A DNA stretch of 45,170 nt, taken from NCBI GenBank assembly GCA_049999805.1, contig JBNGIO010005952.1:1-45170 (forward strand). Reading direction: 5' to 3'. Under the pieces are notes generated by a model. The model was given only the letters and a program-made list of their open reading frames with translations, was not told the origin of the DNA and did not search any database. Both the position numbers and the translations under genes were made by a program. Positions 18,279-40,663 of the stretch are shown one piece after another. Position 1 is the first letter of the stretch, and every line of letters starts with the position of its first letter. This DNA is from Folioceros fuciformis. Lineage: Eukaryota.

Positions 18279-19259
18279 TCATGCGTCTGTCCGGACCCCA
18301 TTACTGCCCACAGCATGCAAGGATGCGCCTTTGCTGGAGGCGAAATCGGCCCTGCAAGTGGAGCAGACCTGCTGGGACTTACAGAAGATGGAAAGGCACA
18401 CCGAGCAGACATAGCCCGTGTCTATGATCTTCTTGTGGCAAAAACAAGAGGCCCTAAAATCCACCCCGGCCGACGAGGGCAGCAGCAGAAACTGCCGAGA
18501 CCCCAGATCGGTGGTGAAGAGCATCATGAGATACTGCACCAGCCCCTCGCACTGCAGGGACTTGAGGTAAACCCCACCCGTGATGTGAGCCGCCTGCTGC
18601 AGAAACGCCGAGTGCTGGCTCCCCACTATGCACGCATCTACGGGCACGTCGTAGCGCTGGGCAGAGAAGATGGCGTTCATGACAGCCACGTACTGCTGAG
18701 GCGCGTCCGAGGAGCTCTGCACGCACAGAATTCTGGGCTGCAGCTGCGGAGAGGACCCCGACCCGTTGGCCCTCTTGCGGATGTAGCACAAAGCCATGGA
18801 CAGAGCTCCCGACAGGAGCGTCCCCCGGTTGCCCTCCTCCCCCTGCCGACTCCAGGCCGCCTCCTCCTCGCCTACGAACTCCTCCAGCCGATGCAGCACC
18901 GGCGCGCTCTGCGGCTGCTGCCCCTGCGCATTGCTGGAGCTCACCCCCGTCAGCCTAACGCTCCCGGCCGCGCAACCCACGCGCGCGGAAGAATCGAACA
19001 GAATTTTCCACGTGCTGGAGCCCGTGGCTACCAGCACCACCTCGTTCAGATGGTGCAGAAGCAGAATGGAGTTCACGAACACCAACACATCCTGGAGAAC
19101 GCGATGGAACGGCGGAGCAGATGCCGCCCAGGCCACCGTTGCTCCGCCACTAGACGCAGCCGGCATGCCCCAGACGTGAGGATTGGTCTCCAAAATGACA
19201 ACCACCCGGCTCGCATTGTCTGCTGAGTGCCGCGCTGCTGTTCCTGTCAGACCTCCCAT
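18279..19259 (-). CDS. TFB4: General transcription/DNA repair factor IIH subunit TFB4 (p34, GTF2H3), single exon
   Basis: Uninterrupted ORF with the vWA-like Tfb4 core (VVILETNP, LLSGALSMALCYI, QYVAVMNAIFSAQ, FLQQAAHITGGVY) and C-terminal Zn finger VDFRASCFCH..GYVCSVCLSIFC..CSTC. First in-frame ATG is at 19259. Confidence 0.95.
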   Translation of the reverse strand: MGGLTGTAARHSADNASRVVVILETNPHVWGMPAASSGGATVAWAASAPPFHRVLQDVLVFVNSILLLHHLNEVVLVATGSSTWKILFDSSARVGCAAGSVRLTGVSSSNAQGQQPQSAPVLHRLEEFVGEEEAAWSRQGEEGNRGTLLSGALSMALCYIRKRANGSGSSPQLQPRILCVQSSSDAPQQYVAVMNAIFSAQRYDVPVDACIVGSQHSAFLQQAAHITGGVYLKSLQCEGLVQYLMMLFTTDLGSRQFLLLPSSAGVDFRASCFCHKKIIDTGYVCSVCLSIFCKSQQVCSTCRADFASSKGASLHAVGSNGVRTDA

Positions 19260-21725
19260 TTCGTCCACGCACCGGCTCGGAAGCAGCTCGCCTGCTCACA
19301 AGATTCTCGCCCCGCTCCTCTCCATAGTTCGAGAAGATCGGCGGGGCTCGCTCGTCCGCTTTCGAAATCGACTTCTCCTCTTCCAAAATTGTGGTGTTCG
19401 AATTTTGTGCTCGGGTTTATCCGAATTTAGGCATAATTTTGTACGTATAGACCTATCGATCCCCAGCCCTGAAGGAGGGTCCGTTGTGGAATTACCTTCC
19501 ATTGGGATTCCATTTCATACACGAATTCATATAATGATCATATATTCTATTGATATTATTTCTTTAAAATAATAAGAGATGCCATCTACTCAGAAATAGA
19601 AAGAAAAACTCGAAGAGAGCCAAAGGTGAAAAGAGTACTAGCAACAAACTAAGATCACTCCCATAACTACTTACCACTCACTTTGATATCATGATGTGAA
19701 ATAACAAAGGGCTTACTCAACACCCATGCTAATGAAGCTTGCCAAACCCACACTTGTTGTTGTCCTATATACCGCATGGGCAAGGACTTTTGAAGGCTCA
19801 TTAAGGAGTGTACAAAGGTGTATAAGGTTTTTTTTGCAAAGAAAGGAATTAAGATAAACTCAACCCTAGGCTGTTTTAGGAATACAATGGCAATAGCATG
19901 AATCCGCATAAGCGGTCACACCTCAAGCAGTTACTTAGATTGGGGGATGAGTAAACTTGTCACCCCAACCTCTAGCTATACTTGACTACTTGTGAAGGAT
20001 CTGATGACTAGGAACTTCTTGCTGAGGTGTGTGTTGGAGTGATTTTTTGTTTTTTTTGCCAAGTTTGGTGTGAAATCGAATTAGGTTGTGAGTAGGCCGA
20101 GGTATTTATACTTAAGATTTCCTTAGCCTATGAGTTTTTAGTTTTGGGCTTGGTCTGACCAATAACTGGTCCTTAGACCAAAGGGGCTGATTGTTCCTTG
20201 GCCTTTGAACAATTCGCAAAAGCCTAATATAAGGGGGGAACCCCATAGACATAGAGTCATTTTGTGATTAAGGTCGAACTGGGAGTAGGGTGTCATCATC
20301 TGTGTGTGGACTTAGTATAAGAAGGGATGTCGTGTTAGGGCAATGTTGAGATGAGTCGAGTCCTAAGCTTGGCCAGCACCCACTTGAAGCTTAGGGTTCC
20401 GTCTTGCACATTCAGCATTTGTACCTGTATCCTAGTGTTATTTCCCACTACTCTGCATGTCACAAATTGCAGCACAATCTACTGCAAGTGAGGGCAATCC
20501 ATGTCCAGAAAAATGAAGATTTTGATTCGAAGAGATTGCAGCAAAGACTTGCAACAATCTGGGTTTGAAAGGAGCTGTGTGACACACACAGCTTGGTGAG
20601 TCAGTAAGTTACGCCATGAACTGCAACATTGGAATCAAAGGCACTGAAAACGTTCTTCATCCTAGCTCCCAATTCCAGAGAACCCAAAAATAGGGTTTGA
20701 TATGCCTTCCCCAAGTTATAGTGCTACGCGGCGCAACTTCAACAACTACCGACTTCTGCCCAGGCTACCCCTTTTGCCTAGCACCAGCCATCTTCATGAT
20801 CCAGCATCCAGCTGAGTTGGCTTCACGCTCTTGCATCAGCGCTGCTCCTTCCATGATGCCTTGCTACTGTACTCTAAGTTCTGTTGTTTTCCTGCGTTGG
20901 CTAGCAGGGTTACACCAACAACAAGTTAGGAAATACCCAACATGTGTTCCGACTCAACTTGCCTATAAACATCTAGCTATTTCTAAGCTAGTTTGCAAAA
21001 TATCTAGCTAAGCTAGGTTCATTTATCCTAGCATTGGTTTACTTGAGACATATATTTGCTATTCTATTCTAAACAACATCAGATGAGGGTTTCTTACCTA
21101 ATCAGCGATCACCTTCATGACAGGGGGGTAGTCGAAGCCCGACGACGGTCATGGAATGAGGAAAGCGGTCGCAGAAGGAGCAACCAGTAGTGGGGGCCGG
21201 TAGTGGTCGTGGAAATAGGAACAACTTCCGGAAGATGGAAACCCTAAGAGGAAGTCCAAGTATTCGGAGGGCACTTTCGAAGTCGAGTGCAACCACGATT
21301 AAAGCAATGTCGGGGAGCGGACTGTGGGTGGGGGCACCAAACCCAGCCCGCAGGCGTGTAAGCTGGGCTGTGGGCGTCGCCTGCCGCGCTAGGCGCGTAT
21401 GGCCACGAGGGCACTGTCGGGGCATTGGGCGTGGATGCCGCGGCACCGGACTGCGGCCAGGCCACAGGACGCCGCCGGATGCGGGCGTTGCAGATGCCGG
21501 GCACCAGATTGCGGGTGCCGGAGCGCCAACGCCGCGAGCGAGGGAGCGGGCGCCGAATCGATCTCGGCCTAGAGGCATCAGGATCTCAATCGGATGACGA
21601 GACACTGGTCGGTCTACAAATTGTGGATAGCTGATTCGGAACAAGGTGTGAGGGTAACTATAAACATCTACATTACATTCCGACAGTTTCTAACTAGCCT
21701 TTAGTTTGATTTGCATCAATTTTGA

Positions 21726-24700
21726 ATGATGACGTCCTTAGAAAACGTCATGTTCAATATCGAGAAGTTAGATGGTACTAACTTCCCGTTCTGGAAAGAA
21801 CAAATGTATAATGTTCTAGTGCAGAAGAAGCAGATCAAGCCCATAAAGTTGCTAGGAGTGAAACCTATTAGCATGACTTAGGATGAGTGGTAGGATCTAG
21901 ATGAGCTTGCTAGATCTACGATCATGCTAACATTGTCGAAGTCGGTCTACTTCAATGTGAAAGACAAGACCACAAGTTTCGAGCTATGCCAGAAGTTGTG
22001 TGACTTGTATGAGAAGCAAAATGCAGCTTCCCAGGTGTACTGGTTGAAACAGCTGGTGGACTTGAAGATGAAGGAAGTGACGAGGATGTCCGATCATCTA
22101 AATGAGTTCAATATCATTTTCAGCCAGCTCTCATCTGAAGGTATCTCGTTCCCAGATTCCGTGAGAGCTATGTTTATGTTGGTCACATTACCAGAGAGTT
22201 GGGACACCTTTCGTACAGCTCTGAGTAATTTCGCTCCTGCCAGTGGTCTCACCATTGTAAATGTAGAAGGTAGCCTGTTAACAGAAGAGGTGAACAGGAA
22301 GAATATGGAACCTTCGAAAGGTTCCAATGCCCTCATGGTGAGAGGAAGGTCCACTTCAAAGGGGAAGTACAAGGAGCGAAGCCATTACCATTGTCACAAA
22401 AAGGGTCACATCAGAAGGGACTGTGAGAAGTTCAAGAAGGACAAAGGAAAGGAGAAGACGTAGAACGACAACAAGGCAAGTTTGAGTATCAAGTCTGACG
22501 AGGTGAATTCTATTGATGATGGAGATGTTCTTACCTCTTCTTCCTTAGATTTTGCACAATTGACAACCGTGGATAGTCACTTATTCTCTAATCGGATAAT
22601 TGACTTTGGAGCATCTTTCCATGTTACTCCGCATAGGAGTGGTTTAGCACCTATGCTGCTACTAGGAAAGGATGTGTTCGGCTTGGAAATAACTACGCAT
22701 GCGAGATTGCAGGCGTTGGTGATGTGTAGCTAAGGTTTGACAACGGATCTTCATTCATACTGAAGGATGTTAGGCATGTTCCGAAGTTGACAAAAAGCAT
22801 GATTAGTGCAGGGCAGTTGGATGATGCTGGCTACCACTGTTGGTTTGGGGATAATTCTTGGAAGATCTCCAAAGGTTCTCTTGTGTTAGCTCGTGGATCG
22901 AAGTGTGGCACTTTGTACTCACTTCAAGTAACCACTGTCAAGGATCATGTGATTTGTGTAACGGAACAGTCTAGTGTTTCCTTGTGGCATAGTCGGTTAG
23001 GACATATGTCTCAAAAAGGAATGAAGATCTTATCTTGTTCTGGTTACGTCCCTGCCTTTGACTTCTCCGTATGTGAGCACTGTTTGTATGGGAAACAGAC
23101 GAAGTCACTGCATGGAGCAAGAGGTAAACACAAAAGTAAACCTCTTGAGTTGGTTCACAATGACGCTTGTGGACCTATGCCCACTATATCATTAGGCGGT
23201 GCATCCCATTTTGTCACTTTCAATGCAAGGTGTGGGTTTATCCTTTGAGGAAAAAGGATGATGTTCTAACAGTGTTTCAGAAATTCATCACCCTTGTGGA
23301 GAATCAGCCTGGCCTTCGACTAAAGTGTCTAAGAATAGACAATGGTGGAGAGTACGTATCGAAGGCTTTCCAGTCATTCTGTGATTCCAAGGGAATTAAG
23401 AGAGAATTGACTCCCCTGTATACTCCTCCCCAGAATGGTGTGGCTGAATGGATGAATAGGACCATCCAGGAGAGGATGCGTAGTTTGTTGTCAAACTTTG
23501 GATTGCCTAACGGATTTTGGGCAGAAGCAGTGGCTACTGCAGTGCATCTTATTAACAAATCTCCTAATAAGGCTGTGGATGAGCAGGTTCCAGAGGAGCT
23601 GTGGTCTGGAAAAAAGCCGTCTTACAAGCATCTACGAGTGTTTGGTTACGAGGCATACTACCATAACCCGAAGGAGTTTCAGGACAAGTTGGCTCCCAAG
23701 TCAAGAAAATGTATTTTTCTTGGCTATGGTGAATCTAGTGAGATGGGATACCGTTTATGGGATCCAGAATCCAAGAAGGTTCTTCGTAGCAATGAAGTGT
23801 TCTTCAATGAGACCAAGATGCACAAGAAGCCTACTCCAACAGTAGAGGTGCGATGGGTGGTCTTCCAAGAAGATGGACTTGACAGTCAGGGGCAGGTTGA
23901 ACATCGTGATATGTAGGAACCCGCTCCTCCACTTGTAGAAGTAGAGAGAGTGCAACCAACTCTGGTCGAGGCGCCTGTGCTTCGTAGGTCAGGAAGGATT
24001 TCACGTCCTCTTGATAAGTATGTTGCATCTCTTGATTATGTCATGCTAACGGATTGTGGGGAGCCCTCTTGTTATCAAGAGGCCATGTTAGTGATTGACA
24101 AGAACAAGTGGGAGAAGGCAATGCAATCGTCGATGGATTTGCTCCATAAGAGCCAAACTTGGGAGTTGGTTCGGTTGCCTAGGGGTAAGAAGGCATTGCC
24201 ATGCAAATGGGTGTATAAGATGAAGGTCATACCCCATTATGGCAAACCCAAGTACAAGGCACGATTGGTTGCTAAGGGTTTTAAGCAACAGCAAGGTATT
24301 GACTTTGATGAGATTTTCTCACCAGTTGTCAAAATGACCACTTTGCGATGTGTTCGTGCTTTGGTTGCGAGGAATGACATGGAACTTATTGAGATGGATG
24401 TGAAGTCGGCACTTCTGCATGGTGATCTCCAGGAAGAGGTATACATGCAGCAACCAGAGGGTTTCATTAAGAAGGGCAGAGAGAATTTGGTGTGCAGGTT
24501 AAAGAAGAGTCTTTATGGTTTGAAACAGCCACCCAGAGAGTGGTATTACAAGTTCCACTCATTTATGCTTTCTCAAGGCTACAAACGTAGTGATGAGGAT
24601 CATTGCCTCTATACGACGCAAGCTAAGGATGGAAGCTTGCTCATTTTGGTCCTCTATGTGGATGATATGCTAATTGTTGGGAATAGCAATGATGAGATTT

Positions 24701-25613
24701 CAGCGTTGGAGTCAAAGTTGAATGCTCGCTTTGACATGATAGACTTGGGAGAGGCCAGCCATATTCTTGGTATGCATATTCGTCGAGACAGACATAAGCA
24801 TTTGCTTTACTTGTCTGAGACTGAATGCATTAACAAGGTGCTTCAACGTTTCAATATGGAGAAGGGGAAGGTATTGAGTACTCCGTTGCCTCCATACGTG
24901 AAACTTTCGAGCAAGGATTGCCCAAGCTCTGTGGATGACAAAGCTGAAATGGAAAAGTTTCCATACTCATCAGCTGTAGGGAGTTTGATGTATGCAATGA
25001 TTGCTACACGTCCTAACAATGCTATTGCAGTGGGAGTGGTTAGCAAGTTTATGTCAAACCCTAGCAAGAAGCATTGGGAGGCAGTGAAAGCAGTTATGAG
25101 GTACTTGAATGGTACAAAAGCTTTGTGCAAATGTTTTGGTAGTGAAGATGCATCTGTCGTGGGATATACGGATGCTGATTATGCAGGGGATATGGACAAA
25201 AGGAGGTCCATATGAGGTTATGTCTTCATGTGCACTGGAGAGGCAGTCTCATGGCGATCTCGTTTGCAATCGTGCATAACGCTATCTACAACAAAGGCCG
25301 AGTATGTTGTAACGACTACAGCTTGCAAGGAAGTCATGTGGCTTGCTCGTTTAGTGGGAGAATTGGGAATCAACATTGAGCTGCCAGTGTTGGATTGTGA
25401 TAGCCAGATTGCTATCCAATTGGCGAAGAATCTAGTGTTTCATGCAAAGACCAAACATGTGGAAGTGAAGTATCACTTCATTCGAGAGGTGTTGGAAGAC
25501 AAGAGGGTGCAGCTTGTCAAAGTTTACACCAGTCAGAACCCTGCAAATATTCTTATCAAGGGCTCTCTACAGACCAATTCGCACAAGCTCGGACACTCAT
25601 GGGCATGAGGTAG
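21726..25613 (+). pseudogene. Copia gag-pol polyprotein, broken by stops and frameshifts
   Basis: ORF pieces 21924-22463, 22482-22733, 22787-23248, 23167-23916, 23950-25215 and 25228-25608 fall in the order GAG-PR-INT-RT-RH. Confidence 0.93.
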
Positions 25614-25655
25614 ACCACTCTTCTATGAAGGTAAATTGGTCTTTAAGTGCGAGGT

Positions 25656-25944
25656 TGTAGGGTTATTAAAGCCCAATGTGCTTAAACTAATGTGTTTAGT
25701 CCAAGATTAGTGTCTAGTTAAGTATCATTTGTTCAGATTAACTTAAGCTAATTTGTAGGAAGCTTCTTGCATAGCTTCCTATGCACTTCTTCTGAAGCTT
25801 CCTTGGGAGCTCTTCTAGAAGGTATAAATACCCCCTTAAGCTCCCTTACAATAGGGACACTGAGAGTGTGAGACCTCTCTTTCTCCGCTCCTCCTTGCTT
25901 CCTCCTCTCCTCCTTTACCATGTGGCTCCTCTACCGATCCTTCA
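25656..25944 (+). repeat. 3' LTR of the copia element (289 bp, TG...CA)
   Basis: Starts TGTAGGG just after a purine tract (AAGTGCGAGGT), contains TATAAATA, ends CCTTCA, and is followed by CCTAC (candidate TSD). Confidence 0.93.
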
Positions 25945-28900
25945 CCTACTGGTTCTTCATGGCATGCACTTCCTCCCGTGCCCTATGTGATTCTTCCTGT
26001 ACTTGAGCTCTTACTTCATCCAGGGCCTGTTGGGCTTCCTCCAGCTGTTTTCGCCTTGCCTCTGCTTTAGCCAACTTGGCCTGCGCCTCCTCATCTCACT
26101 GTCCCTGCATGCTCAGCCAAGTGAGTGCCAGTGCGGCCTAATCCAGCATGTCCGCCTGTGCTCGGACCATGGCGACTGTCAAGCCCGTTAAATCCACCTG
26201 CTGAGGGGTTCTACCGGTAACCACCCCCCTGTCCAATATCTCCTTCCCCAGCAAAGTGCACACTCTAGCTAGCTCTTCCGTTTGTAGATTTGCCGCTAGA
26301 GGGGTGCCCTTAAAGACTTCTTTGCATCCAGGGAAGAGTTCCACTGCCGGGTTTCAGCCCTAATTTCTCCAAAACACCTACAGCCACATCAGCGGGCCTT
26401 TCCTCCGCCGTCAGTGCCTCTTCATTGGGTTCCGCGGATGGGGTGGCTGGTTGCTTGGTCTCCGTTTTCCTGGCCGTCTCTTGTAGCGCCAGGTTTGCTT
26501 TAGACCTGGTGACGTGCGCACCTGCCTTCTTCCTCTTCGCAGGAGTTTTCTTGCTTCCTCTCGCCTTCTGTTTCCTGCTAATGGGGACCTCCTCTTCAGA
26601 GCTACTTGTCGCTCCAGATTCCCAGCTGCCGGACTCTGCCTCTTCCTTGGGCTCATCTGGCTTCCACTTGATCTCCCTAACAGGCTTCCACATATGCAAG
26701 GAAGCCACAATGTCCAACTATGGCAAATAGTTAACATGTGAATACAAATGAATAAGCAAAGGAGAAATTAAGGATCAGAATACGGCGAGAATACGCACCT
26801 TGTTGAGGAAGAGGATATTGGATAGAGGGATGGCTACTGGTGGGACTCCTCGACAAGTGGATTTAACGGAGCTTGACAATGGCCATGGTCTGAGCACAGG
26901 CGAACATGCTGGATCAGGCCGCATTGGCGCTCACTTGGTTGAGTATGCAAGGACAACGAGATGAGGAGGCGTAGGCCAAGCTGGCTGAAGCGGAGGCAAG
27001 GCAGGAATAGCTAGAGGAAGCCCAACAGGCCCTGGACGCAGTGAAAGCTTAGGTACAGGAAGAATTACGCAGGGCCCGGGAAGAAGTGCAGGACATGAAG
27101 AATCAGTAGGAACTGAAGAATCAGTAGGAACTGCTCCTGACCCAAGTCAAGGAAGTACATGAAGCAAATCAGGAAATGCAGCAGGAGTTGCTGTGGGCAT
27201 AGGAGCAAGAGGCAATTGCTGTGGAGAAGGTCCAGAAGCTCGCGGACCGTTACAAACGGGAATGGGATGAGCCCCGAAGCCGGGTCAAGGGGAAAGGGAA
27301 AGTCAAACGCAGCAACAGGTCCACGACCGAGGTAGCGGAAGGCGCTACCGGTAGGGGAGAAACGACGCCAGTAGAGGGAAGCCCTACCATAGTCGAGGAA
27401 GCAGTGACAGTCGTGGACCCAGCAACCAGGGTTGTTGGGACTCCTACCCGCGCCAAGAGGACTGGACTGGAGAAGGGTGCAGGTAGGACGACATGAGGCA
27501 CTCTTGCACCTTTGGGGGACAGGGAGCAGACAACCAAGGGTAGCCCACGGGAGGAGGGGGTAAGCACCTCATTTGCAGTAGGAGAAAAAATTGTATTAAA
27601 GCACATGGATGAGGAGTCTTATATTCCTGGCCTCTATGTAAATGGAGATCATGTACTTGATCTTATTATCCATGTGCGTGTGGGAATAGGAGGGACCAAG
27701 GCCTACCGTCTGCAAGTGAGGACCCGCAATGGGTGCTTCTCCTATTGTTTCCGGGTGTGGGGGTTAACCCCCTGTTATTTGGAGGCAGTCTTGGAGGAGC
27801 TCACAAAGGAAGAGGCACAGGCCTGGGTGGAGCAAAAACCAGTGATGGTCCTTAGTAACAGGCGATCAGTGGGGAGAGAAAGGACTCCCAGGCAGACCCC
27901 ACCCATGCCTAGCTAGGAGAGGTCAGACAGTGGTGGAAGTGAAGTGGAGGTCTTATGGGAGGACTTTCCTGACCAGTAGAGAGGGAGGAGAGCTTGGGGG
28001 TTTGGCGGCCGAGGAAGGAGGACCCTAAGGATGGATAGGAGGAGAGCGCGGCGCTGAAATAGGTCATAAGTTATTGCATCTTAAAATAGAACTTAGATAA
28101 GATTTCATGAAGATGCTATCTTGGACCTGATGCCGCCCGCAATTAAGGGCACTTTGCAATTGACCATTTTTAACTTTTAGACCCGACTTTATGGTAGGCT
28201 GTGGCTCCCGCTCTAAAAAAATTTGTATAGAGAAACCTGTTAGTGCCTCTCTAAGCAGCCAATGTTGAGGACACTTCCCGGTTGAGATCCCCAGGGGCCA
28301 GGGTGGGTAGCGTGTGCGAGAAGCTCCTAGGACGAGTTGCAAGCATTGCTCCATGGCTGGTGATGAGGGGGACGAATCCGCAGAACCTACTCGTACAGGA
28401 TGTTTCTCCTCCCTAATTTCCCGAGTTACCTATCGTGTGCGAAATTCGTGTGAGTGTGCATGTAAGACCACTTCCCGGTTGAGATCTCCGTTTGCCAAGG
28501 TGGGTAGCGTGAGCAAGAAGCTTCTAGGGGTGGGTGAGAGCGTTGCTTCGCGGCTGGTGGTGAGGAGGACGAATCTGCAGAACTTGCGGGCATGGGAGGT
28601 TTCTCCTCCCTTATTCCCAGAACTAACTGCCGTGTTCCAACTTTTGATTGTGAAAGCGTGTGTGCGAAGACGAAGGGTGAAGGAGAGAGTGAAGAAGGTG
28701 TGTATGGTCAAGTGAGTTGAGAAGAGAAGATGAGACAAAGAGGAGGAGGGAAGTGAGGCCAATCACTAAACAAAACGCGAGGTGTGAGGCTGGAGACTGA
28801 AATGGAAACGATGAACTAACTGAACTTATTGGAAGTTGAACGAGATTGCTGCAAGATCGGGGATGTTACTGGAGAGTGGAGAGGATTTCTGGGAAATTTT

Positions 28901-30471
28901 TGGAGAAGGTTTCTAAGCGTTTGTGTGAGGTTACTGGAGATTGTTGGAGATCGAAGGAGGTAGGGGTGGATTACTAAGAGATTGTTGGGGATTTGTGGAC
29001 AGTATTAGAGGACTGGAGGCCTCGAGAGCCGGCTTGTGGGGGCGAGAGTGCATCGGAGTTTTGCATGTGGGGAGAAACTTGTGTGTGTGTGAGGGAGTGT
29101 GGCTGATCCGCGGGGTCCTATCCTCCGAGGATCGGCGTTTGCATGTGTTGGAAGCATCTAATAAGGCCAGATCGGCGAGTCTGGATGCTCCGAGGTAGGA
29201 GCCCACGGCGGAACTCTGCGGCGATGTATGCGCCAGGAAAGTATTAGTTAGGGTTCATGGTGGTTCCCACCACGATCGTGGGAACCACTACCGTGCGCGG
29301 AAACAGCGATCGCGGTCGTAGAGTAGGGATTGCGATAGCTGGGCTAACAAGGAATAGTAGTAGTTGAGTTGGTAAGTAGTAGGAGTGGTAGTGGATGAGT
29401 CTTGACTTAAGTAAGATTCAGTAATAGCGTTAGCCCATGTTACTTAACACAAATCATTCCCTTGGCAACAAATCATATGACTACAACGACATAGAGGGTG
29501 AATATGGACCTCACGATGTCCCCGGACACAACATTTCACTCCACAGCTACCGGTCGCTCCAGATTCCTAGCTGCTGGACTCCGGCTCTACCTCTCCCTTG
29601 GGCTCATCTGGCTTCCATTTAATCTCCCTAATTGGCCACCACATGCGCAAGGAAGCTACAATGTCCAGCTCAGGCAAACAATTAACATGTGAGTAAAGAT
29701 GGACAAGGAAGGGAGAAATTAAAGATGGTCAAGGGTTGGGGAGGTCAAATTCTGCCTCTCCTCACTCAGTGTGTCGGAGATAATTTTTCCCCAATTGATC
29801 ATGCTCCCTTGATCACCTCATACAAAAACATCAATATGGTTAGATTGATAATCCTGCTTCTTGTGCTGTAGGAAGCAGAGGAGCCATTTGGCTAGGCCCA
29901 TGAATTGAGTAGACGCCATCTCGCGCGTTAGCCAGGCGTTGGGCAACCGTCTTATGCCCATCTTAAACAACACTATTGCTGCTGCCACCGTTCTCTGCTT
30001 TGGAAGGGATTCGATTACGATCCCTCCAGCTTTCTCCTCGCTACACCCATACACCACCTTCACCAAGTTAAGGTTCCAATCCTACAGCCTGTCCCTAATT
30101 CCTCCTATCGGTGCCTTGGCCCGTAGTTGCTGCACACACTCTTGTACCAGGCCTAGGTTCGCGTAGTTCCAGCGTTTTGCCATGAACTTGAGGCCCAACT
30201 TCTCTACCAAATCTCTTGTCCGGACCCTCTAGTGGTCCATGTTGGGCTAGAGAGCAATCTCGACCTGCACCATTGGTCGGGATTCCTGCAAGAATCAATC
30301 ACCGTTAGCCCAACCGTCGCTTCCGCCAGCCGTCGCCGCTCCAGGGTTTGCTTGCGCACCGCTACCACCGCCTAACCTAATCCTCATAGCCTCGCATTTC
30401 CTCAAGCCTATCAGGAGATGGCCGCTGTCGCCACGCCTGCTACCTCCTCTCTGGTCACCACGCTCACCCCA
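25945..30471. mobile_element. Fragments of a second, multi-copy degenerate element (coiled-coil/accessory-ORF-bearing, probably Ty3/gypsy-related) in both orientations
   Basis: 25945-26262 (-) is an imperfect inverted copy of ~26790-27110 (+). 26602-26773 matches 29547-29724. ~28030-28350 matches ~31470-31780. No RT or integrase motifs were seen. Confidence 0.55.
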
Positions 30472-31137: not shown

Positions 31138-32547
31138 GTAGGAACTGCTCCTAACCCAAGTCAAGGAAGTACATGAAGTAAATCAGGAAATGCAGCAGGA
31201 ATTGTTATGGACACAGGAGTAGGAGGTAGCTGCTGTAGNNNNNNNNNNNNNNNNNNNNNNNNNNNNNNNNNNNNNNNNNNNNNNNNNNNNNNNNNNNNNN
31301 NNNNNNNNNNNNNNNNNNNNNNNNNNNNNNNNNNNNNNACTAGATTGCTGAAAGACCGGAGACGTTTGCTAAAAGATTGCTCAAGATTGCTCAAGATTGG
31401 GAAGGATTTTTCGGAGATTTCTAGACATTTGTGGGAGGATGCTGAAGATTGTTCGTGAGCCAAAAGAATGGATAGGAGGAGGGCACGGTGCTAAGGTAGG
31501 CCAGGAGTTATTGCATCTTAAAAATAGAATTTAGATACCATTTGACTAGATGCTATCTTGGACATGATGCCACAAGTAATTAAGAGCACCTTTCAAGTTG
31601 ACTGTTTTTAGACAGACACTTTATGGCGGGGTGTGGGTGTGACACACACTCTACAAACTTTTGTATTAAGAGGCCTATTGGTGCCTCTTTAATTAGACAA
31701 CTTCCTGGTTGAGATCCCCACGGTGCCTAAGTGGGTAGTGTATGGGAGAAGCTCTTAAAGGTGGTCGAGAGCGTTGGTGGTCAAGAGCGTTGCTCTACGG
31801 TGGAATGTTAGTTGATGTGGTGGCAACACATATGAATAGCTTTGCAAAGGGTTTTAACTGATATTATCTTTAAAACACAAGGTTAGTCTCTAGTGTCCCT
31901 ATCATGGTCTATCTCCCTCTTTAGGGGTACATAGATTTTTCATCATATTTTTAAAAATATATATGAAACTTCTTTAGTACAACGACAAATAAAGGGGGGA
32001 AGAAGACCAATTGCAGCTAGCCTTTTTATTATTTCATCTCGACATTATGGGAGCACTAACTAGTTTTTAAGTTCGACAAATGATATTCGAGGGTAGTCCC
32101 TATGGCCTTCGGCCCTCAGCGGTTGTTCCTCGGATTTTCTACAAGTTTTTTTAATAATATAGATCAACCCTTATGCTTCGTAGTTTGTTGTTCGCATTTA
32201 CGTCGTAGGTCACAACCACGAAGACACGGAGGAGTACGACAGCTGCGAAGATGAGCTGTGGAACAAGCTCTTCACCACAGAAGACAGCAACGCCAGCAGC
32301 AGCTTCGTGTATGCTCAGGCATGGGGCCATCTCGCCGGCTTGGAAGCTCCTCGCTCCTACGGTTTTTGGTTAGGGCAGATCGTGAATTCACTTTGAGACT
32401 GGTCAAGGCGGCAAGTCTGTCTGTCCGTAGCACTGTGTTTGTGCCCCGTTTTTTGGCCCCGTTTTCGATGAGACTGTGCTCATCAGCCGGGTGCTTGGAC
32501 TGGATTGAGTTTGTCTGGAGGAGCTGAGAAGAACTCTGATTCCTTAG

Positions 32548-35500
32548 ATGGGTCCTGCTGGGCTGCGGAAGGGCGAGGATCCGTTGATCAGCATCGAATC
32601 CAGTCTAATGGCGCTCGAAAATTTGGTAGGTGGAGCAGGGCCTTCCGGCAATAAAGTTATCCTTAAGGCCATCTTGAATGTGCGTAGGGAGAAGGATAAA
32701 CTCGTCGCCGTGCAGAAGAAGAGATGCAGCTCGTCGGGGACAGCAGAATTGACCCAAAGTATCGCAATGGCCTTGGAAGGTTTGCGGAAAACCATCCGTG
32801 ATGTGGACTCCAAGATACGAAAGTGTGTTCAAGATCCTACTAGGGTTTCGGAGGACATACCGATTAGAACTGGTTTCAACGATGTACCTGCAAACGAGTT
32901 GCTTTTACAATACGTCAGGGCCTTGAAGACATGCAGGCGTAAGGCTAAGAGAGACAAGGCATTTGACATCCAGCTGAGGAGTTTGGACAAGAATCTCCCT
33001 CCAAATTACGTGCAACTTAGCAAGTTACACGATAAGGTCTTGCAGTATTTGAGGGATAAGAGCAGCAAAAGTGTGATCATTACCGGCATGTTTGGCATGG
33101 GAAAATCAGCTCTTGCTTTGGACCTGGCTTCCACTCTTAGAGAGGGTAAGCAGTGCAGTCTGGACTGGTTAGATTCTAGGGTTCTGAGTGTATGAGCGCG
33201 GTGAATTACTTTGCTCGGCCTAGATAACTTCTCTTTTGATTCAGTCAGATCTGAATTCTTTTGATGCAGCGAGGTGTGACAAGAACTTGTATGGTTTCTT
33301 GGTGTGTGTTTCTTACGGCGGAAGTGCAGGTTTTGACTACCCTGGTGGTGTGCACTTCAGTACCTTTGGTGAAACTTACGGCGCTACTTGTTCCCAGACG
33401 GCCCTTGATGACAAGATTTGTGTTGAACTCGAACGAATTGAGAGGTTTGTGAACGTGAACAAGATGAGACGTACTTGGGATCAAAGCATGTCCTCTCAGT
33501 CCAGGAAAGAGAAGATAAGGGTGGCTCTTGGCACTATGCTGTCAGACCTCCGTTGTTTGATTGTCTTGGATGATGTATGGCATCCACGGATATGGGAGAA
33601 CTTTTGGTTTGAAGGACACCCCGGAAATCTGCTTATCACAACAAGGTCAACTGGTGGAGCGTATAAAAACGATATGGTGGTCGAGATCCTCCCAGAACAC
33701 TACATGGATGTTGAGAGGCTGGATGAGAAAATATTGTTACGAAGCGCAGGCCGGAAATCCGGTGTCCCTTCGAATTTTAAGGTAATTTGGGTCTGAGCCT
33801 CTGGTATACCTGGAAGTCAGGTTGAATGCTATGTGTTGATCTGTTTTGGCATGGTTCTCCCTTTCATCCTTGAGTGTGCTCGTTTTCTTTTGCAGGTCCC
33901 AGCTGAAATGATTCTGGCCAAATGTCATGGCTGCCCATCAGCAATAACTATGATGGGTAATGCTGTACGTGATAAGACTCAGCCTGCGGAATGGCAAAAG
34001 GCTGCTGATGAGTTCGCCTTGCATGCAGAGCAGAGTCATCCCCTGGACGGCTATTCAAGTACTTTGTTTCAAGGGGTTCAATCTAGTATTGTTGCCTGTT
34101 CCGGTAATGAGCAGTCTTTTAGGGCATTCGATGTGTTCAGAGGGACAGCAATTCCAAAAAACCTTTTGAAGCTGGCTTGGACATTCCGCATGGACACTTC
34201 AGATGAGGCCACCTTTGATAAGGACTTCAGGGCATTTGTAGGAATTCACATTCTGGAGCGGACAAAAGTGAGTCAAATTCGGTTCATGTTGATCGTTAGA
34301 CGTAAGTGGGAAGTTGTGTTACATGGTAATGAAATTTCCTTGGGATCAAATTCCGCTTCATGCAGGATCAGGATTGCTATCGAGTGCATCCCATTATCAG
34401 AGATTACTTGTTACAGCGTTTTTGCAGTCAGTACAGTTTTCAGTCTCAAGAACAATACCCTTCTCCGCTGGCTTCTCCTAGTAGCAACAGAAGCCGCCTG
34501 TTATGTGCTTTCCTCCTCACCTATGGGCACGCTGCAGTTCTCTCGTGGTGTACAGAATTACTGTCTGACGGTCCTGAATGTGATACATACAGAAATATCT
34601 TTTCTCAGACCATGGAAAGTGAAATTCCTCAAGTGAGAGTCCTAACGAGTAAGATAAGCAGTGAACTGACGGATAAGGAGCTTTTGACTTTAAAGAAGCA
34701 AGTTCTTGCTGCCACTTTACGCTCCTGGGGTTTGGCTAAGGTGATACAAACTCAGGAGCGCAATGGTCTGGGGGACCTTGAGGAGGCCAATAGGTTGCAA
34801 CCTGAACATCCTACAACGCTCAGGTAAGGTGCACTGTGCTTTTATGTTTTCCTCCTGCACTAGTGTAGCTACAAGATAAGTAAGCCATGCTGTTCCTTGT
34901 TCCCAGAAATTTAGGAGTTGCTTATTTGACACTCGGACAGTACCAACTTGCTGTGGATAATTTGAGGGAAGCAAAAAGGCTAAATCCTGATGACTCACTC
35001 ACCTTAAGGTCGGAGACGTTCTATCTTCAGCTAGCCTGCTCCGGATATGTGGAGATCAGAACAGTTTGTGAGAAGTTCTGCGTTCCTATGTTTGCAGCTT
35101 CTTGTACACTGCCATGGGCATATCAGGCTGGGAGAGGGCCAAACTTGAGCTGCCGGATGATTCACCATCTCAAAAAAGCATACTTTTGAGGTAAATCTTT
35201 GGTGCAACTGTGTAGTGAGAGAACGTACCGTATCTCTGGGTGGGGGCAACATGAAGGCTCTTGCTCAATTTCCTGGAAATCTCCCCCTCGTACCAATGCT
35301 CACATTGTTGTCCTGTCCTGTAGCTCACGAGCTTTACTGAGGTGGAAGCTGGGCATGGTTAAGTGTGCACTGAAAGATTTAGAGTTTGTACTGAAAGATT
35401 CAGAAAGCTGTCCAAATCAGAATCCCTTTATCCTGAGGTGGTATTCTGAAGTGCATTATGGTTTCCCACTGCAACTCGAGCTCTGAAACAAACTTTTCCT

Positions 35501-36412
35501 CACTCTGATTATACTGTAATCCACAGCCTGCTGGGAGCTGTGAAGATGGAAGGCGGGGATCTTGATGGCGCCAAAGCGGATTTGCAAAAGGCTCTTACGT
35601 CTTTGCATGGGGAAGATGTTTCCTTCACGCTTTGGTAGGCAAGCATGACGCTGTGATTGTCAAGTTGCTTGAGCGGATGCCATGGTAATCACTGATTGAC
35701 TCTCCTACCTGTCACACTGGTGCAGTTATTTGGGTCTGACGAGCCTGTACGCAGAGGACTTCAGAGGCGCTAAAGAGTATCTTGACCGAGCCGTAAGTGC
35801 ACAGCCTCAATGCCCGTTCGTTCTCAGGTATGCTAGCGAACTGTACTTCAAAATGAAGCATAGCACAATTGAGAGAAGCTATTGACGACCATTACCTTCC
35901 AGCACAAACGTGACGCTGTCCGAGGCCAATACCTTACCTGCCAGGAAATAACTCCGTGCCTGACCACAGCCGTGTGTTGCCTACAGTGTCCGAGGGGAGG
36001 TGAATCGGATGTTGAAAGACTATGAGGCTGCGGGCAGAGACTTACAGAAAGCCAAAGCACTACAGTCGTCGCCAGACGCATTCACTAACCAGTGTGTTAA
36101 GCCTCTTCCTGGCACCTTGAAGTATCATTTTGTTCAGGTTGCTGCAATTGGCTGAATCCTGAGCCCATGCATGTGATACAAAGCTCCTGTTGTCGTTTGT
36201 TTTCGAAGGTGCCTGATGAACTTGAGATGGATGGAAGGCAAGTTCGAAATGGCGATAAAGGTACAACTCTACTCGTAGAGTCCGCTCGATTCACATTCGG
36301 AAGGAAGCTCAACAGGTCTCCGACTCATGTTCATACTCCTGTTGTGCAGCTGGTGCGCTTGTTACCGGTCGAGCCAAGTCAGGCCCTGGAATGTGTGGAG
36401 GGACCAAGATGA
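32548..36412 (+). CDS. NB-ARC-TPR (NLR-like STAND) protein with helical N-terminal domain; 12 exons, ~872 aa
   Basis: Exons 32548-33145, 33330-33781, 33896-34267, 34366-34823, 34907-35008, 35098-35190, 35324-35437, 35527-35634, 35726-35827, 35987-36091, 36209-36260, 36350-36412 (2619 nt, open). P-loop ITGMFGMGKSALA, Walker B CLIVLDDVW, RNBS-B LLITTR, GLPL-like CHGCPSAI, MHD-like YRVHPIIRDY. TPRs such as NLGVAYLTLGQYQLAVDNLREAKRLNPD. The start codon and last two exons are less certain. Confidence 0.85.
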
Positions 36413-37890
36413 CGGCGAGCCAAGGAGGTCTCTGTGATGAGTAGGTGGTTTGCGGGCTTGGCGATCACGTTTACCATCTCCAATGTGTCTGGTCACGGGG
36501 ATTCCAGCAGACGCGGAGACCTGTGTCCGACTGAAGCAAAGATTTTGCGGCGCGAAGACTCTAGGTTGCAGCGTGACGAGGATGGCGCCAGCGGCCTACG
36601 TATGTATGTTTGGATGTGTGTGCGCGTGAGCAAGTACAAATTGGAGAGTAATAAAGGGGTTGCTTGCGTGGTGTGGCCCAAAGAGCAAGGTGGAAAAGGC
36701 CAACCCGGAGCCCGTCCGAGCCAGTGCATGAAGTTTCCATGAGCCATGTCCGTATCACTTGGGCAGGGGTCGGCCCGACTCCCGGTGCCTGTGGACAAAG
36801 CACGTCGGAAGGTAGCTGGCCGGCAACCGGGTCAGCCGGTTCCGCTGGTCTCGACGGTCGCTCCTTGAACGGCACGCGGCACACAGCCTGCTTGCAGTTG
36901 CGGCTGCGATGCTATCGCCGCTGCTGCTGCTGGCGTTGCTTGCCTGCCAGGCCGATGCCGCCTTCCCGGGCCGCCCTCGCTCCAGCCCTCTTCCTCTCTC
37001 TTCCAATCTTTTCCTTGGCATCCCGACATGAGCCACGGATCCGCCGAAACTCACCACCCTCGACATTGCCTTCTTAGAACGCGCTCTCCTGTCTGAATTT
37101 CCGCATGCTACTTTTGCTATCGGGCAAGACAATGTCGTGCTAGCCTTCTGTTCCCACAGCTCGCGCATTTCGCTGGGCAGGACACTGGAATTCCGCTTTC
37201 CTCTGACCACTGGCCTCTCACTTCACGGCGCTCGTCTCCTCTGTTTGGCGCTTCTGCTTCTTCGCACCGGTGGGATCCGATGCCTTTGTGCGCGTTCTAC
37301 GGATTTGCGACCTCGTGCTGTTCCTCCTGTTCCGCTTCTTCTTCCTCCCGATCGACGGCCGCGGGTTTGCGAAGCATTTAGGATTGGGGGCCAAGTTCAG
37401 TGTGCAGCTGCGGAAGGCGGCAGCTTTGGTGATGGGGAGCGGGTACAGGTGTCTTTGTCTCGGTCTTGGTTGTGGACAGCAGGATTCGTGAGTTGGGGCC
37501 CCTGCATTTTTGTGGGCGTTTGAAGAGATTTGAGAATATTGAGGCTCTGGCTTTGGGGCCCATGGTGGTGGGGAGAACCACATGTAGCACCTTAGCTCTC
37601 ATCAGCGGATGTTGCATGCGGCAAGAGAGATTGTGGACTGTGTCGTGCGTCAGCCACTGCTCAAGTGTCGGGGTCGCTCAGGCATTGAGCGTAGGAGGCA
37701 GGGAGTGTAGGTTGCTGCTGCTGGAGGAACGCGAGGCCGGTGGTAGTGAATGTCCAGGTTTTGGATTGCACACCTGTGACGCTGGGCAAAAATCACGCAC
37801 CGCGATAGCCATAAAGCTGTGTCACTGGATATCGATTCAAGCTGGAACGGGGCCGAGTCTGGCACCCTAGAGGTGAGGGTCCACTGCGAG

Positions 37891-40663
37891 ATGGGCTCAC
37901 CCTGGGGTGCATCCAACAGTGGAGAGCCTCCCCCCACCAGCATCATGGCTGGGGGGAGGGACATGGCTCAAGTTATCCTCAGCCCCAGGGTGTCAGGCAC
38001 GAAGAGTCCCGGAAATCGCTATCGCTCTCTCTCCTTCAAGCGGATACATCCCTCTGATGTGTTTACCCCTTTCAGAGACGACATGCCTGAAGTTGATGAA
38101 TCGGGGCTAGCTGGGTATGCTCCTGAGGGCAAGAAGATACATGCCGTGGACCGAGCACGCTTCTACGTGTTGCTGGAGTTTGTGTTTCGTTGCTATGGGC
38201 GATTAATGTCGTTGCTCAGCTGTAAATCTAGATGGAGGCGCGCACTGTTTGTACTTTTGGGGTTACTCAGTCTCGCGCTCCTCGTTGTAAAAATATTCAC
38301 GGTGATGGGATTGTCAGAGGATTTTCATGATCCAGCGGGTTTTAAGGTGAGTTCGTGGCTCCTCCCTTGCCTCTTCATGATTTACCTGTGAGCAGCATGC
38401 AAAACTTTGGTGCCTTCAAAGTGTAGCAAGTTTTCCTCTCATGCTTTGTAAATGTGTGGTTCTTAGTGTAATTGTGTGGGTTTTCTTTGGGAGGAAAACC
38501 AGACTGTGGTATTCGATGGTGTTCTGGAGTTAATGTGCACTCTGTTCGCCGCGGATTTGCAGACATGGCGAATGTCTGAGGAGGCCCTTAAAGCTGTACA
38601 TCCAACAAGGGATCTAAGTACTGTGGATAGCAGCGAGGCAGAGGTATGTTGTTGTGGTGAATGGAATAATGGTAGTGCCTATCAGGACGTATATTCAGCT
38701 CCAGGCTACCTTGTTAATTGTTGCCCTTGGAATATGTCTCTCAGATTTCACTATTGGAAGAAAAACTATGGGTGAAACCTGAAAGTGATGGATATGAGCA
38801 ATGCATCGAGCGTTCTCGGAATTACAAAAGTAATCTTGCACTTGTATGTTGCATGTAGCAGCGTCGTAGTAGACGATGAACTCATGACGAACTCCTGCTT
38901 GAGATCGAGGGTATTCTTGTCTTGAACCGACAGCTTCATGCTTGAACTTGTGCCACAGGGGGGGGGGGGGGTACTAATGGATATATATTGGTCAAGGCTA
39001 ATGGCGGGTTGAATCAGATGCGCACAGGGGTAAGGTTCATTCCATACTTGCCTGGTTATGGTCTTGGACTTTTTTTCTTTGGTAATGATTGGATTCGCTG
39101 CTTGCATCTGACATCTGCTTGTTGAACAGATTTGTGACATGGTTGCCGTGGCGAGAATTATGAATGCCACCCTGGTTATACCTTATCTAGATCACAGCTC
39201 TTTTTGGAACGACCTAAGGTTTGGGATGCTCGCTTATACTTCAACGACTACCTTTCAAGTGTAGCAAAAAGCGCTTTCACTCCTTCCTAACACATTTGGT
39301 TGCTATCCGTTGCAGTGAGTTCAAGGACATTTTTGATGTGAGATACTTCATAGATAGACTCAAAGAGGATGTGAGGATTGTGCAGTCTTTACCACCATCT
39401 CTGGCTGACATTACCCCATATACAAAAACTCCCGTCTCCTGGTCCAAGGTCAGACAAAACTATTGACGAACTAGAGTTTGACAAAACTCTCTCCACATGT
39501 TTCGATAGATGCAAAAGTTGAGATTTTTTCTCTAATAGGTCTTATTTTGTTGGCAGCATACTTACTATAAAGAGGAGCTACTGCCTCTGTTGAAGAAGCA
39601 GAAGGTCTTGTACTTCACTCATGCTGATTCAAGGCTCGCAAATCATGACATACCTGAATCTGTCCAACGTCTGAGATGTCGCACAAATTATCGTGCGTTG
39701 AAATATACTGAGCCTATTGAGAAACTCAGTCAAGTGATGCTTGAAAGGTTACGCTCTCAAGGCCCCTTTATCGCTCTTCATTTAAGGTAAGATCTAACGT
39801 CGGGTGCATACCAGTTGTAGGATGATGGACAACAAGCCCGTCTGAAACTCAAACTGAATGGCCTGTGGGTTGTTGCAGGTACGAAAAGGACATGCTTGCT
39901 TTCACAGGCTGTTCCCATGGCCTTTCTGAGATGGAGGCAGAAGAACTGCGAGAAATGCGTTATAATGTGAAGCACTGGAAGGAGAAAGAAATAGATGGTG
40001 AGTTGAGACGCAGGGAAGGTGGTTGTCCCCTGACTCCTCGTGAAACAGCTATGCTGTTGAAGGCCTTGGGTTACCCAAGCGACACAACCATCTATATTGT
40101 AGCTGGTGAGATATATGGCAATGGCAGCATGGCTTCACTGCAAACAGAGTTCCCTAATGTGTATACACATGACATGCTTGCAACTGAGGAGGAGTTATCA
40201 CCAATCAAACGGTATCAAAACAGGCTTGCAGCAGTGGACTACACGCTGGCTTTAGAGAGTGACGTTTTTGTCTACACATACGATGGGAACATGGCGAAAG
40301 CTGTGCAAGGTCATCGACGATTTGAAGGCCATCGGAAAACCATCAATCCTGACAGGTACGAGTTTCCATCTTTGACCTCCTTTGTGTTTCTTTTTTCTCC
40401 TTAGTCATCTGACTCTGGTTGTTGTGCTGTGCAGGCAAAGTTTGGTGACGTTGATCGATGACTTAGACTCCGGCAAGTTCGAATGGGAGACGTTTGCCCG
40501 GGACGTGAGGGAAATCCATGAGCCTAGGATGGGTGCACCTCACGAAAGGATAGCTGGTGAGTTCGCCAAATCCGAGGAGAACTTTTATGCTAATCCCTTC
40601 CCCGGTTGCATATGTGAAAGGAAAGTCAGGACGGATGCTACGAGGAGACTACTAAAAGGGTGA
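37891..40663 (+). CDS. Plant O-fucosyltransferase-family protein (GT106/DUF246; OFUT19/FRB1-like)
   Basis: Spliced motifs [130 protein letters not shown]. There is a TM anchor near 38240-38310. The start ATG is uncertain. Confidence 0.92.

Follow-up and report, generated by a model that had tools for sequence, protein, structure and literature searches.

An NB-ARC–TPR gene of Folioceros fuciformis with one repeat per exon points to old exon duplication

Introduction

Land-plant intracellular immune receptors almost always use leucine-rich repeat (LRR) sensors. In Folioceros fuciformis (GCA_049999805.1, contig JBNGIO010005952.1, positions 1–45,170 of the forward strand; this whole stretch of 45,170 nt is called the window), a gene resembling nucleotide-binding LRR receptors (NLRs) instead carries an NB-ARC domain followed by an array of tetratricopeptide repeats (TPRs), six of which lie on single exons with lengths that are multiples of three. 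The question that this locus raises is whether such a layout diversifies the sensor today, as an earlier note on the DNA had proposed, or records how the array once grew.

Overall, our analysis points to the exon array being a fossil trace of old exon duplications and not an active generator of diversity. Transcription and splicing follow the model, and the repeat units of the gene have diverged almost to randomness and are all constitutively spliced in. We give a probability of about 0.7 to the reading that the product is an NLR-like switch of the NB-ARC class of STAND proteins (signal-transduction ATPases), without a TIR domain, with a constitutive exon layout left by old duplications and with an output in defence or cell death.

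Results

Gene structure and RNA evidence

The NB-ARC–TPR gene comprises 12 exons on the + strand (32548–36412; ATG at 32548, TGA at 36410–36412) and encodes a product of 872 amino acids (aa). The introns that follow exons 4–10 are all of phase 2, seven in a row, and the other four are of phases 1, 0, 0 and 0. The RNA evidence for this model consists of the contigs of one public run (X1), examined over 32100–36900; two other runs (X2 and X3) gave no contig there. The RNA label of X1 is a guess, its RNA nature is shown by its spliced joints, and its sampling condition is unrecorded. The parts of the gene are as follows.

32205–32547 (+): 5' leader; the X1 contig is unspliced over 32205–33144, and the leader is known as far as this contig reaches
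32548–33145 (+): exon 1, 598 nt, phase-1 end; joint 33145>33330 in X1
33330–33781 (+): exon 2, 452 nt; NB-ARC core with Walker B LIVLDDVW (33557–33580) and RNBS-B LLITTR
33896–34267 (+): exon 3, 372 nt; part of the ARC region with GLPL-like GCPSA; Pfam NB-ARC match and X1 joints
34366–34823 (+): exon 4, 458 nt, phase-2 end; MHD-like VHP (34384–34392), helical linker and first TPR-like unit
34907–35008 (+): exon 5, 102 nt, phase 2-2; best-kept TPR unit; X1 joints
35098–35190 (+): exon 6, 93 nt, phase 2-2; degenerate, shortened unit; X1 joints 35006>35096 and 35188>35322
35324–35437 (+): exon 7, 114 nt, phase 2-2; TPR-like unit lengthened by a 21-nt duplication; X1 joints
35527–35634 (+): exon 8, 108 nt, phase 2-2; TPR unit; X1 joints
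35726–35827 (+): exon 9, 102 nt, phase 2-2; TPR unit; X1 joints
35987–36091 (+): exon 10, 105 nt, phase 2-2; TPR unit; X1 joints
36209–36260 (+): exon 11, 52 nt, phase 2 to 0; opening half of the final TPR-like unit; joints 36091>36209 and 36260>36350
36350–36693 (+): exon 12; last 20 codons, TGA (36410–36412) and 3' untranslated region with AATAAA at 36650–36655; the RNA contig ends at 36693

Over the examined interval, the X1 contigs show a GT..AG joint for each of the 11 introns, and no further joint; X1 contains 0.66 of the words sampled from 32500–36500. All twelve borders of exons 5–10 were confirmed by these joints, those of the degenerate 93-nt exon 6 included. One X1 contig of 977 nt starts at the start of exon 4, and exons 4 and 7 are among its pieces listed; since its length equals that of exon 4 plus exons 5–9, it must traverse these exons in order. 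The sole base difference listed for the X1 contigs compared to the window is a T for C at 32554, the first base of codon 3, which suggests that X1 comes from the same species, from another individual or allele.

Several features of the transcript stand beside this model. Unspliced X1 contigs were found over intron 3 (34239–34395) and intron 9 (35798–36013) beside the spliced forms, and may represent pre-mRNA, retained introns or DNA carry-over; reading the frame of exon 9 on into intron 9 leads to a stop after 18 codons. An in-frame AG acceptor lies at 33269/33270, 60 nt upstream of the acceptor used in RNA (33329). Its use, seen in none of the X1 contigs, would insert 20 codons between the P-loop and the remaining NB-ARC domain. 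In the 5' leader, a TAG (32545–32547) stands in frame immediately before the start codon, and an upstream open reading frame of 40 codons lies within the transcribed part (+; ATG at 32251, stop at 32371–32373). The X1 contig that covers the leader starts at 32205, immediately 3' of an AG, so that an additional non-coding exon is possible further upstream.

Exons 5–10 share phase and register

Exons 5–10 measure 102, 93, 114, 108, 102 and 105 nt, and each is preceded by AG, followed by GT and read through by one open frame at offset 1, as expected with a phase-2 intron on either side. The borders and the X1 joints thus bear out the six exons as the earlier note had placed and measured them, and the open frames, the spliced model and X1 agree with its claim that phase-2 GT-AG introns surround all six. 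It had also stated that any subset of these exons can be skipped, duplicated or swapped without a frameshift, which holds by arithmetic: exons 5–10 are symmetric (2-2), and the loss or gain of any one of them therefore preserves the frame.

The array proved longer than the six units first described. Six units do lie on single exons (5–10), while another TPR-like unit closes exon 4 and a last one is split by a phase-0 intron across exons 11 and 12, giving a C-terminal array of about eight TPR units of 31–38 aa. The phase-2 introns cut the TPR units at position 5/6, and the unit of exon 4 ends at the register common to the later repeat exons. A profile built from seven units (the one closing exon 4 and those of exons 5–10) matched designed consensus TPR proteins with an E-value (E) of 9.5e-40. 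No LRR family was found on any exon with Pfam, and the C-terminus is made of TPRs.

The further claim, that each exon encodes one TPR-length unit split at the same register, held, with the register placed by profile matches in four of the six exons. With Pfam, the first and second residues of exons 5, 8, 9 and 10 fall on profile positions 6–7 of TPR_1 or TPR_2. Exon 5 matched TPR_1 above the cut-off (E 8.1e-8; 32.2 bits vs a cut-off of 27.8), and the other three matched below it: exon 8 weakly to TPR_2 and TPR_1 (profile positions 7–29), exon 9 to TPR_2 (E 0.0053; positions 6–33) and exon 10 to TPR_2 (E 0.055; positions 7–31). Exon 7 gave a weak match to TPR_9 only. It contains an in-frame tandem duplication of 21 nt (35362–35404, +; 2.0 copies with 86% matches in Tandem Repeats Finder) by which 7 aa of the second helix occur twice; this accounts for both the extra length of the exon and its poor TPR match. 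Exon 6, taken alone, had no Pfam match, yet it is included in RNA, in agreement with its description in the earlier note as a degenerate repeat.

The chance of any one intron being of phase 2 can be taken as about 0.25 from general knowledge of intron phases. Under this assumption, seven consecutive phase-2 introns have a probability of about 6e-5, and the register common to the units makes a chance origin still less likely. The pattern of repeat exons is one of descent by duplication, not of chance.

The repeat units are old and diverged

We compared the six exon units with each other and looked for traces of recent turnover around them. The units share 15–40% pairwise identity in protein and 45–55% in DNA, with five different lengths among the six exons, and Tandem Repeats Finder detected no exon-plus-intron period in the DNA. 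A hidden Markov model of the eight units, searched against every six-frame piece of at least 15 aa in the window, scored the exons themselves and no relic TPR exon, whether in the introns, on the opposite strand or anywhere else in the window (next-best match E 0.34). No paralogue was found within the 45-kb window by tblastn of the protein. Among the X1 contigs there was no exon-skipping joint besides the 11 constitutive ones, which is weak evidence because contigs drop rare variants. Taken together, the low identity between units, the lack of a period, of relics and of a paralogue in the window, and the constitutive joints in X1 speak against the proposal that these exons are now being skipped, duplicated or swapped.

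The NB-ARC domain and the N-terminal region

Scanned alone, exon 2 matched the Pfam family NB-ARC (PF00931) with E 1.2e-5 (25.2 bits vs a cut-off of 23.5), and exon 3 matched it over profile positions 184–225 with E 1.1e-4 (22.0 bits, just under the cut-off). P-loop NTPase families matched the end of exon 1. In the spliced product, the motifs GMFGMGKS (Walker A, aa 180–187, which fits GxxxxGK[ST]), LIVLDDVW (Walker B, aa 276–283), LLITTR (RNBS-B or TTR motif, aa 300–305), GCPSA (GLPL-like, aa 362–366) and VHP (at the MHD position, aa 481–483) follow each other at the expected spacing. Among these, P-loop, Walker B and TTR are intact, and the motifs that an ATPase needs to bind and hydrolyse nucleotides are in place. 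Together with the TPR profile, the Pfam match and the motifs uphold the description of the product as an NLR-like protein that joins an NB-ARC domain to TPRs.

Among solved chains, those nearest to exon 2 were plant NLRs of the coiled-coil (CC) and RPW8 type, which made up the top 8 of 10 matches (Sr35/CNL9, At5g04720, NRC2 and MLA13), with Apaf-1 and ZAR1 (RPP13-like 4) next; all these matches were weak (E 0.005–0.67).

The N-terminal region of about 155 aa matched no Pfam family, and no TIR family was among the matches of exon 1 up to an E of 1. An AF2 model of exon 1 from its single sequence was wholly helical, with low confidence (predicted local distance difference test, pLDDT, 46.7), and an AF2 model of exon 4 with its relative P0010 (see below) reached a pLDDT of 47.1. 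The Atlas neighbours of exon 1 were SesA, MLKL-N/NB-ARC and RPW8, with scores of 0.80–0.81 that lie under the level that counts (0.9). We conclude that the protein has no TIR domain, because no TIR family matched, a TAG stands in frame before the ATG, the 343-nt leader is unspliced and the prediction is helical only.

Relatives in databases and lineage

A HMMER scan of exon 2 against 1.84 billion representative proteins gave 8 matches at E <= 0.001. Half of them (P0002, P0004, P0005 and P0007) are short fragments that we read as true members of the family, three are plant-type NB-ARC proteins, among them P0006 with an Rx_N-NB-ARC-winged helix-LRR architecture, and the remaining one (P0008) is an NB-ARC fragment. 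P0002 shares 38% identity with exon 2, and P0010, found with exon 4, shares 43% identity and likewise has VHP at the MHD position. P0010 is from another assembly, and each of the two comes from a contig of 13,888 bases that is presumably one and the same. P0010 ends at the same point as exon 4, and P0002, P0004, P0005 and P0007 also stop where exons of this gene stop, which suggests, as far as fragment ends can tell, that the relatives share these intron positions.

No homologous protein was found for exon 1, and a search for longer proteins homologous to exon 2 returned none. Scanning metagenomes with the NB-ARC alignment gave 38 loci with 25–59% identity over the best segment. No close kin was found among these 38 loci: searched by tblastn with the family fragments and the spliced model, they returned distant, contiguous and intron-free NB-ARC sequences of 25–32% identity.

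The green-plant lineage suggested in the earlier note is plausible in view of the nearest Atlas clusters of a neighbouring exon of the O-FucT family (all Streptophyta, 0.95), the plant CC-type NLR structures nearest to exon 2 and the Rx_N-NB-ARC-LRR matches. A Ty1/copia-type element upstream of the gene (see below) is a further lead. The gene probably encodes an NB-ARC-class STAND protein in a probable streptophyte.

Other features of the window

The O-FucT exon belongs to an open stretch at 39826–40404 (+) that matches the C-terminal half of the GDP-fucose protein O-fucosyltransferase family (PF10250; E 4.1e-40). Upstream of the NB-ARC–TPR gene lies a retroelement of the Ty1/copia type (21894–25215, +), with the following parts.

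21894–22463 (+): gag
22730–23248 (+): GAG-pre-integrase
23164–23916 (+): integrase core
23917–25215 (+): RVT_2 reverse transcriptase

The copy looks degenerate, because its parts are in different frames and there is a stop between the integrase and the reverse transcriptase. No direct repeat of at least 80 nt was found in 19000–29000 as a candidate pair of long terminal repeats. At 28272–28643, a 175-nt unit occurs in two direct copies that are 76% identical and spaced by 197 nt. Two scaffold gaps of 100 N lie at 785–884 and 31239–31338, and about 1.2 kb separate the second from the gene downstream of it. Nothing in the window was matched by Rfam or tRNA scans.

Discussion

Comparison with known systems

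The closest layout that we could compare is that of the NB-ARC-TPR genes of the brown alga Ectocarpus. In the accessible part of Zambounis et al. 2012 (PMC3341825), the repetitive loci among these genes are described with exons of one identical length, 126 nt (42 aa), with inactivated TPR exons in introns, and with clustered paralogues, rapid gene birth and death and signs of shuffling, so that the precedent invoked in the earlier note is as it had claimed. Similar to the Ectocarpus genes as they are described there, the gene analysed here has an NB-ARC domain followed by C-terminal TPRs and a frame-neutral exon per repeat (for six of about eight units). Unlike them, its exons are 93–114 nt long, belong to the 34-aa class of TPRs and are highly diverged, and within the window there are no relic exons, no local paralogue and no near-identical exons. 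Of the hallmarks of those shuffling loci that we looked for, identical length, relic exons and near-identical exons were all three missing. The resemblance, which we compared by description and not by NB-ARC sequence, is most simply explained as convergent or as generic to repeat genes.

In plants, TNPs (TIR-NB-ARC-TPR proteins) are the only TPR class whose architecture is NLR-like, and no TNP orthologues were found in two charophytes, as far as the accessible text of Johanndrees et al. 2023 (PMC9806590) goes. Measured against the features listed in that text, and not sequence against sequence, our gene is like the TNPs in having P-loop, Walker B and TTR motifs in its NB-ARC domain, TPRs and not LRRs after it, and a place in the green lineage. 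Unlike the TNPs, which are defined by an N-terminal TIR domain, it starts with a helical region, lacks any TIR match and leaves no space for a coding exon further upstream. Lack of a TIR places the gene outside the TNPs, and lack of an LRR places it outside the canonical plant NLRs. Receptors with TIR domains or four-helix bundles of the CC/RPW8 kind, combined with non-LRR repeats, are reported for the streptophyte algae Chara, Chlorokybus and Klebsormidium in the accessible part of a review (PMC10952240, citing Gao 2018, Andolfo 2019 and Chia 2022); by that description, the gene would fit a loosely defined group of NLR-like proteins with alternative C-terminal repeats. In the literature searched, we found no published one-TPR-per-exon layout for NB-ARC genes of the green lineage, and supplementary NLR lists for algae and bryophytes may include such genes.

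The gene also shares features with Sr35, NRC2, MLA13, ZAR1 and Apaf-1, whose NB-ARC domains were the nearest solved ones to exon 2, weakly, and with which it shares a predicted helical N-terminus. By analogy, the same switch mechanism as in CC-type NLRs and Apaf-1 would be expected. Its sensor differs, being made of TPRs where plant NLRs have LRRs and Apaf-1 has WD40 repeats, and the prediction of N-terminal helices is of low confidence. The order of NB-ARC and TPRs is also that of bacterial and fungal STAND proteins, of which AfsR and the Avs-type proteins are examples. Unlike the NB-ARC loci from metagenomes, which are intron-free, the gene is intron-rich and its NB-ARC domain scores best against plant NLRs.

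Proposed origin and mechanism

The simplest account would be that an exon and its intron were long ago duplicated in tandem to build up the array, a process that fixes both phase and register, and that the array has since been retained as a constitutive unit. By analogy with other NB-ARC proteins, the TPR array may keep the ATPase switched off and serve as the site where a ligand binds, and binding would then lead to nucleotide exchange and oligomerisation, as in the wider NB-ARC/STAND family. Oligomerisation would gather the N-terminal helical domains into a signal which, judging from the family, most likely serves defence or cell death.

Several observations weigh against this reading of a constitutive, NLR-like switch in a streptophyte. 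The MHD position holds VHP, in which the His is retained and the Asp is replaced by Pro, and the NB-ARC score of exon 3 falls just short of the Pfam cut-off. The N-terminal fold is predicted with low confidence only (pLDDT 46.7), with all Atlas leads below 0.9. The streptophyte placement is based on leads (the O-FucT clusters and the NB-ARC affinities) and not on a phylogeny, and the function is read from family resemblance alone. The contigs may hide rare exon-skipping isoforms, and the search for paralogues covers the 45-kb window, so that exon turnover between loci elsewhere in the genome may occur.

Alternative explanations

An alternative explanation is that the symmetric TPR exons are shuffled or alternatively spliced at present, diversifying the receptor exon by exon. 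Since exons 5–10 are all 2-2 and share one register, any subset of them would retain both the frame and the periodicity of the repeats, and the length of a repeat exon has changed at least once, through the 21-nt duplication in exon 7. There is also precedent in brown algae, in the one-TPR-per-exon genes of Ectocarpus with their signs of shuffling (PMC3341825) and in 72-bp phase-2 LRR exons that are alternatively spliced (PMC11378527), both as given in the accessible text of these papers. However, units of 15–40% identity with five lengths among six exons are far from the shuffling loci of Ectocarpus, which all have 126-nt exons, and the relic or inactivated TPR exons described there were found neither in the introns nor nearby. 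Neither a tandem period in the DNA nor a paralogue in the 45 kb was detected, the X1 contigs carry the 11 constitutive joints only, and relatives are few (8 matches at E <= 0.001, four of them read as fragments of the family). We therefore consider ongoing diversification of the exons very unlikely. Still less probable is a broader version of it, in which streptophytes possess a lineage-restricted group of helical-NB-ARC-TPR receptors outside the TNPs, whose 2-2 TPR exons vary between paralogues or alleles or are skipped under biotic stress, as a convergent counterpart of the brown-algal exon-cassette receptors; we mention it as a speculative idea.

The gene might also encode a STAND protein that acts as a regulator or scaffold in housekeeping or signalling, with no relation to pathogen sensing, whose TPR array binds an endogenous partner and whose exon layout has no functional meaning. 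It seems to be low-copy, as judged from the few relatives and the lack of a paralogue in the window, and its splicing is constitutive and its transcripts occur in an RNA data set whose condition is unrecorded. In addition, the TNPs, the only established land-plant TPR class with NLR-like architecture, show no clear immune phenotype in the majority of tests, as far as PMC9806590 and PMC12856790 are accessible. On the other hand, both the NB-ARC motifs and the nearest solved relatives belong with plant cell-death NLRs and Apaf-1, and the family looks fast-evolving, with relatives that are 35–43% identical over exons 2 and 4 and none for the N-terminal domain; such fast evolution would be more typical of defence genes. 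A non-immune role thus appears unlikely to us, and we retain the NLR-like switch with an old, constitutive exon array as the preferred reading.

Implications

On the present evidence, no new route to immune diversity is shown: the frame-neutral layout permits gain and loss of repeats over evolutionary time, with no sign here of present use. The clean arrangement of one repeat per exon offers a simple and testable case of how a repeat sensor grows through exon duplication. As an expressed NB-ARC-TPR gene that has no TIR domain and few relatives in databases, it also provides a data point on the pairing of plant-type NB-ARC domains with other sensors and other signalling heads.

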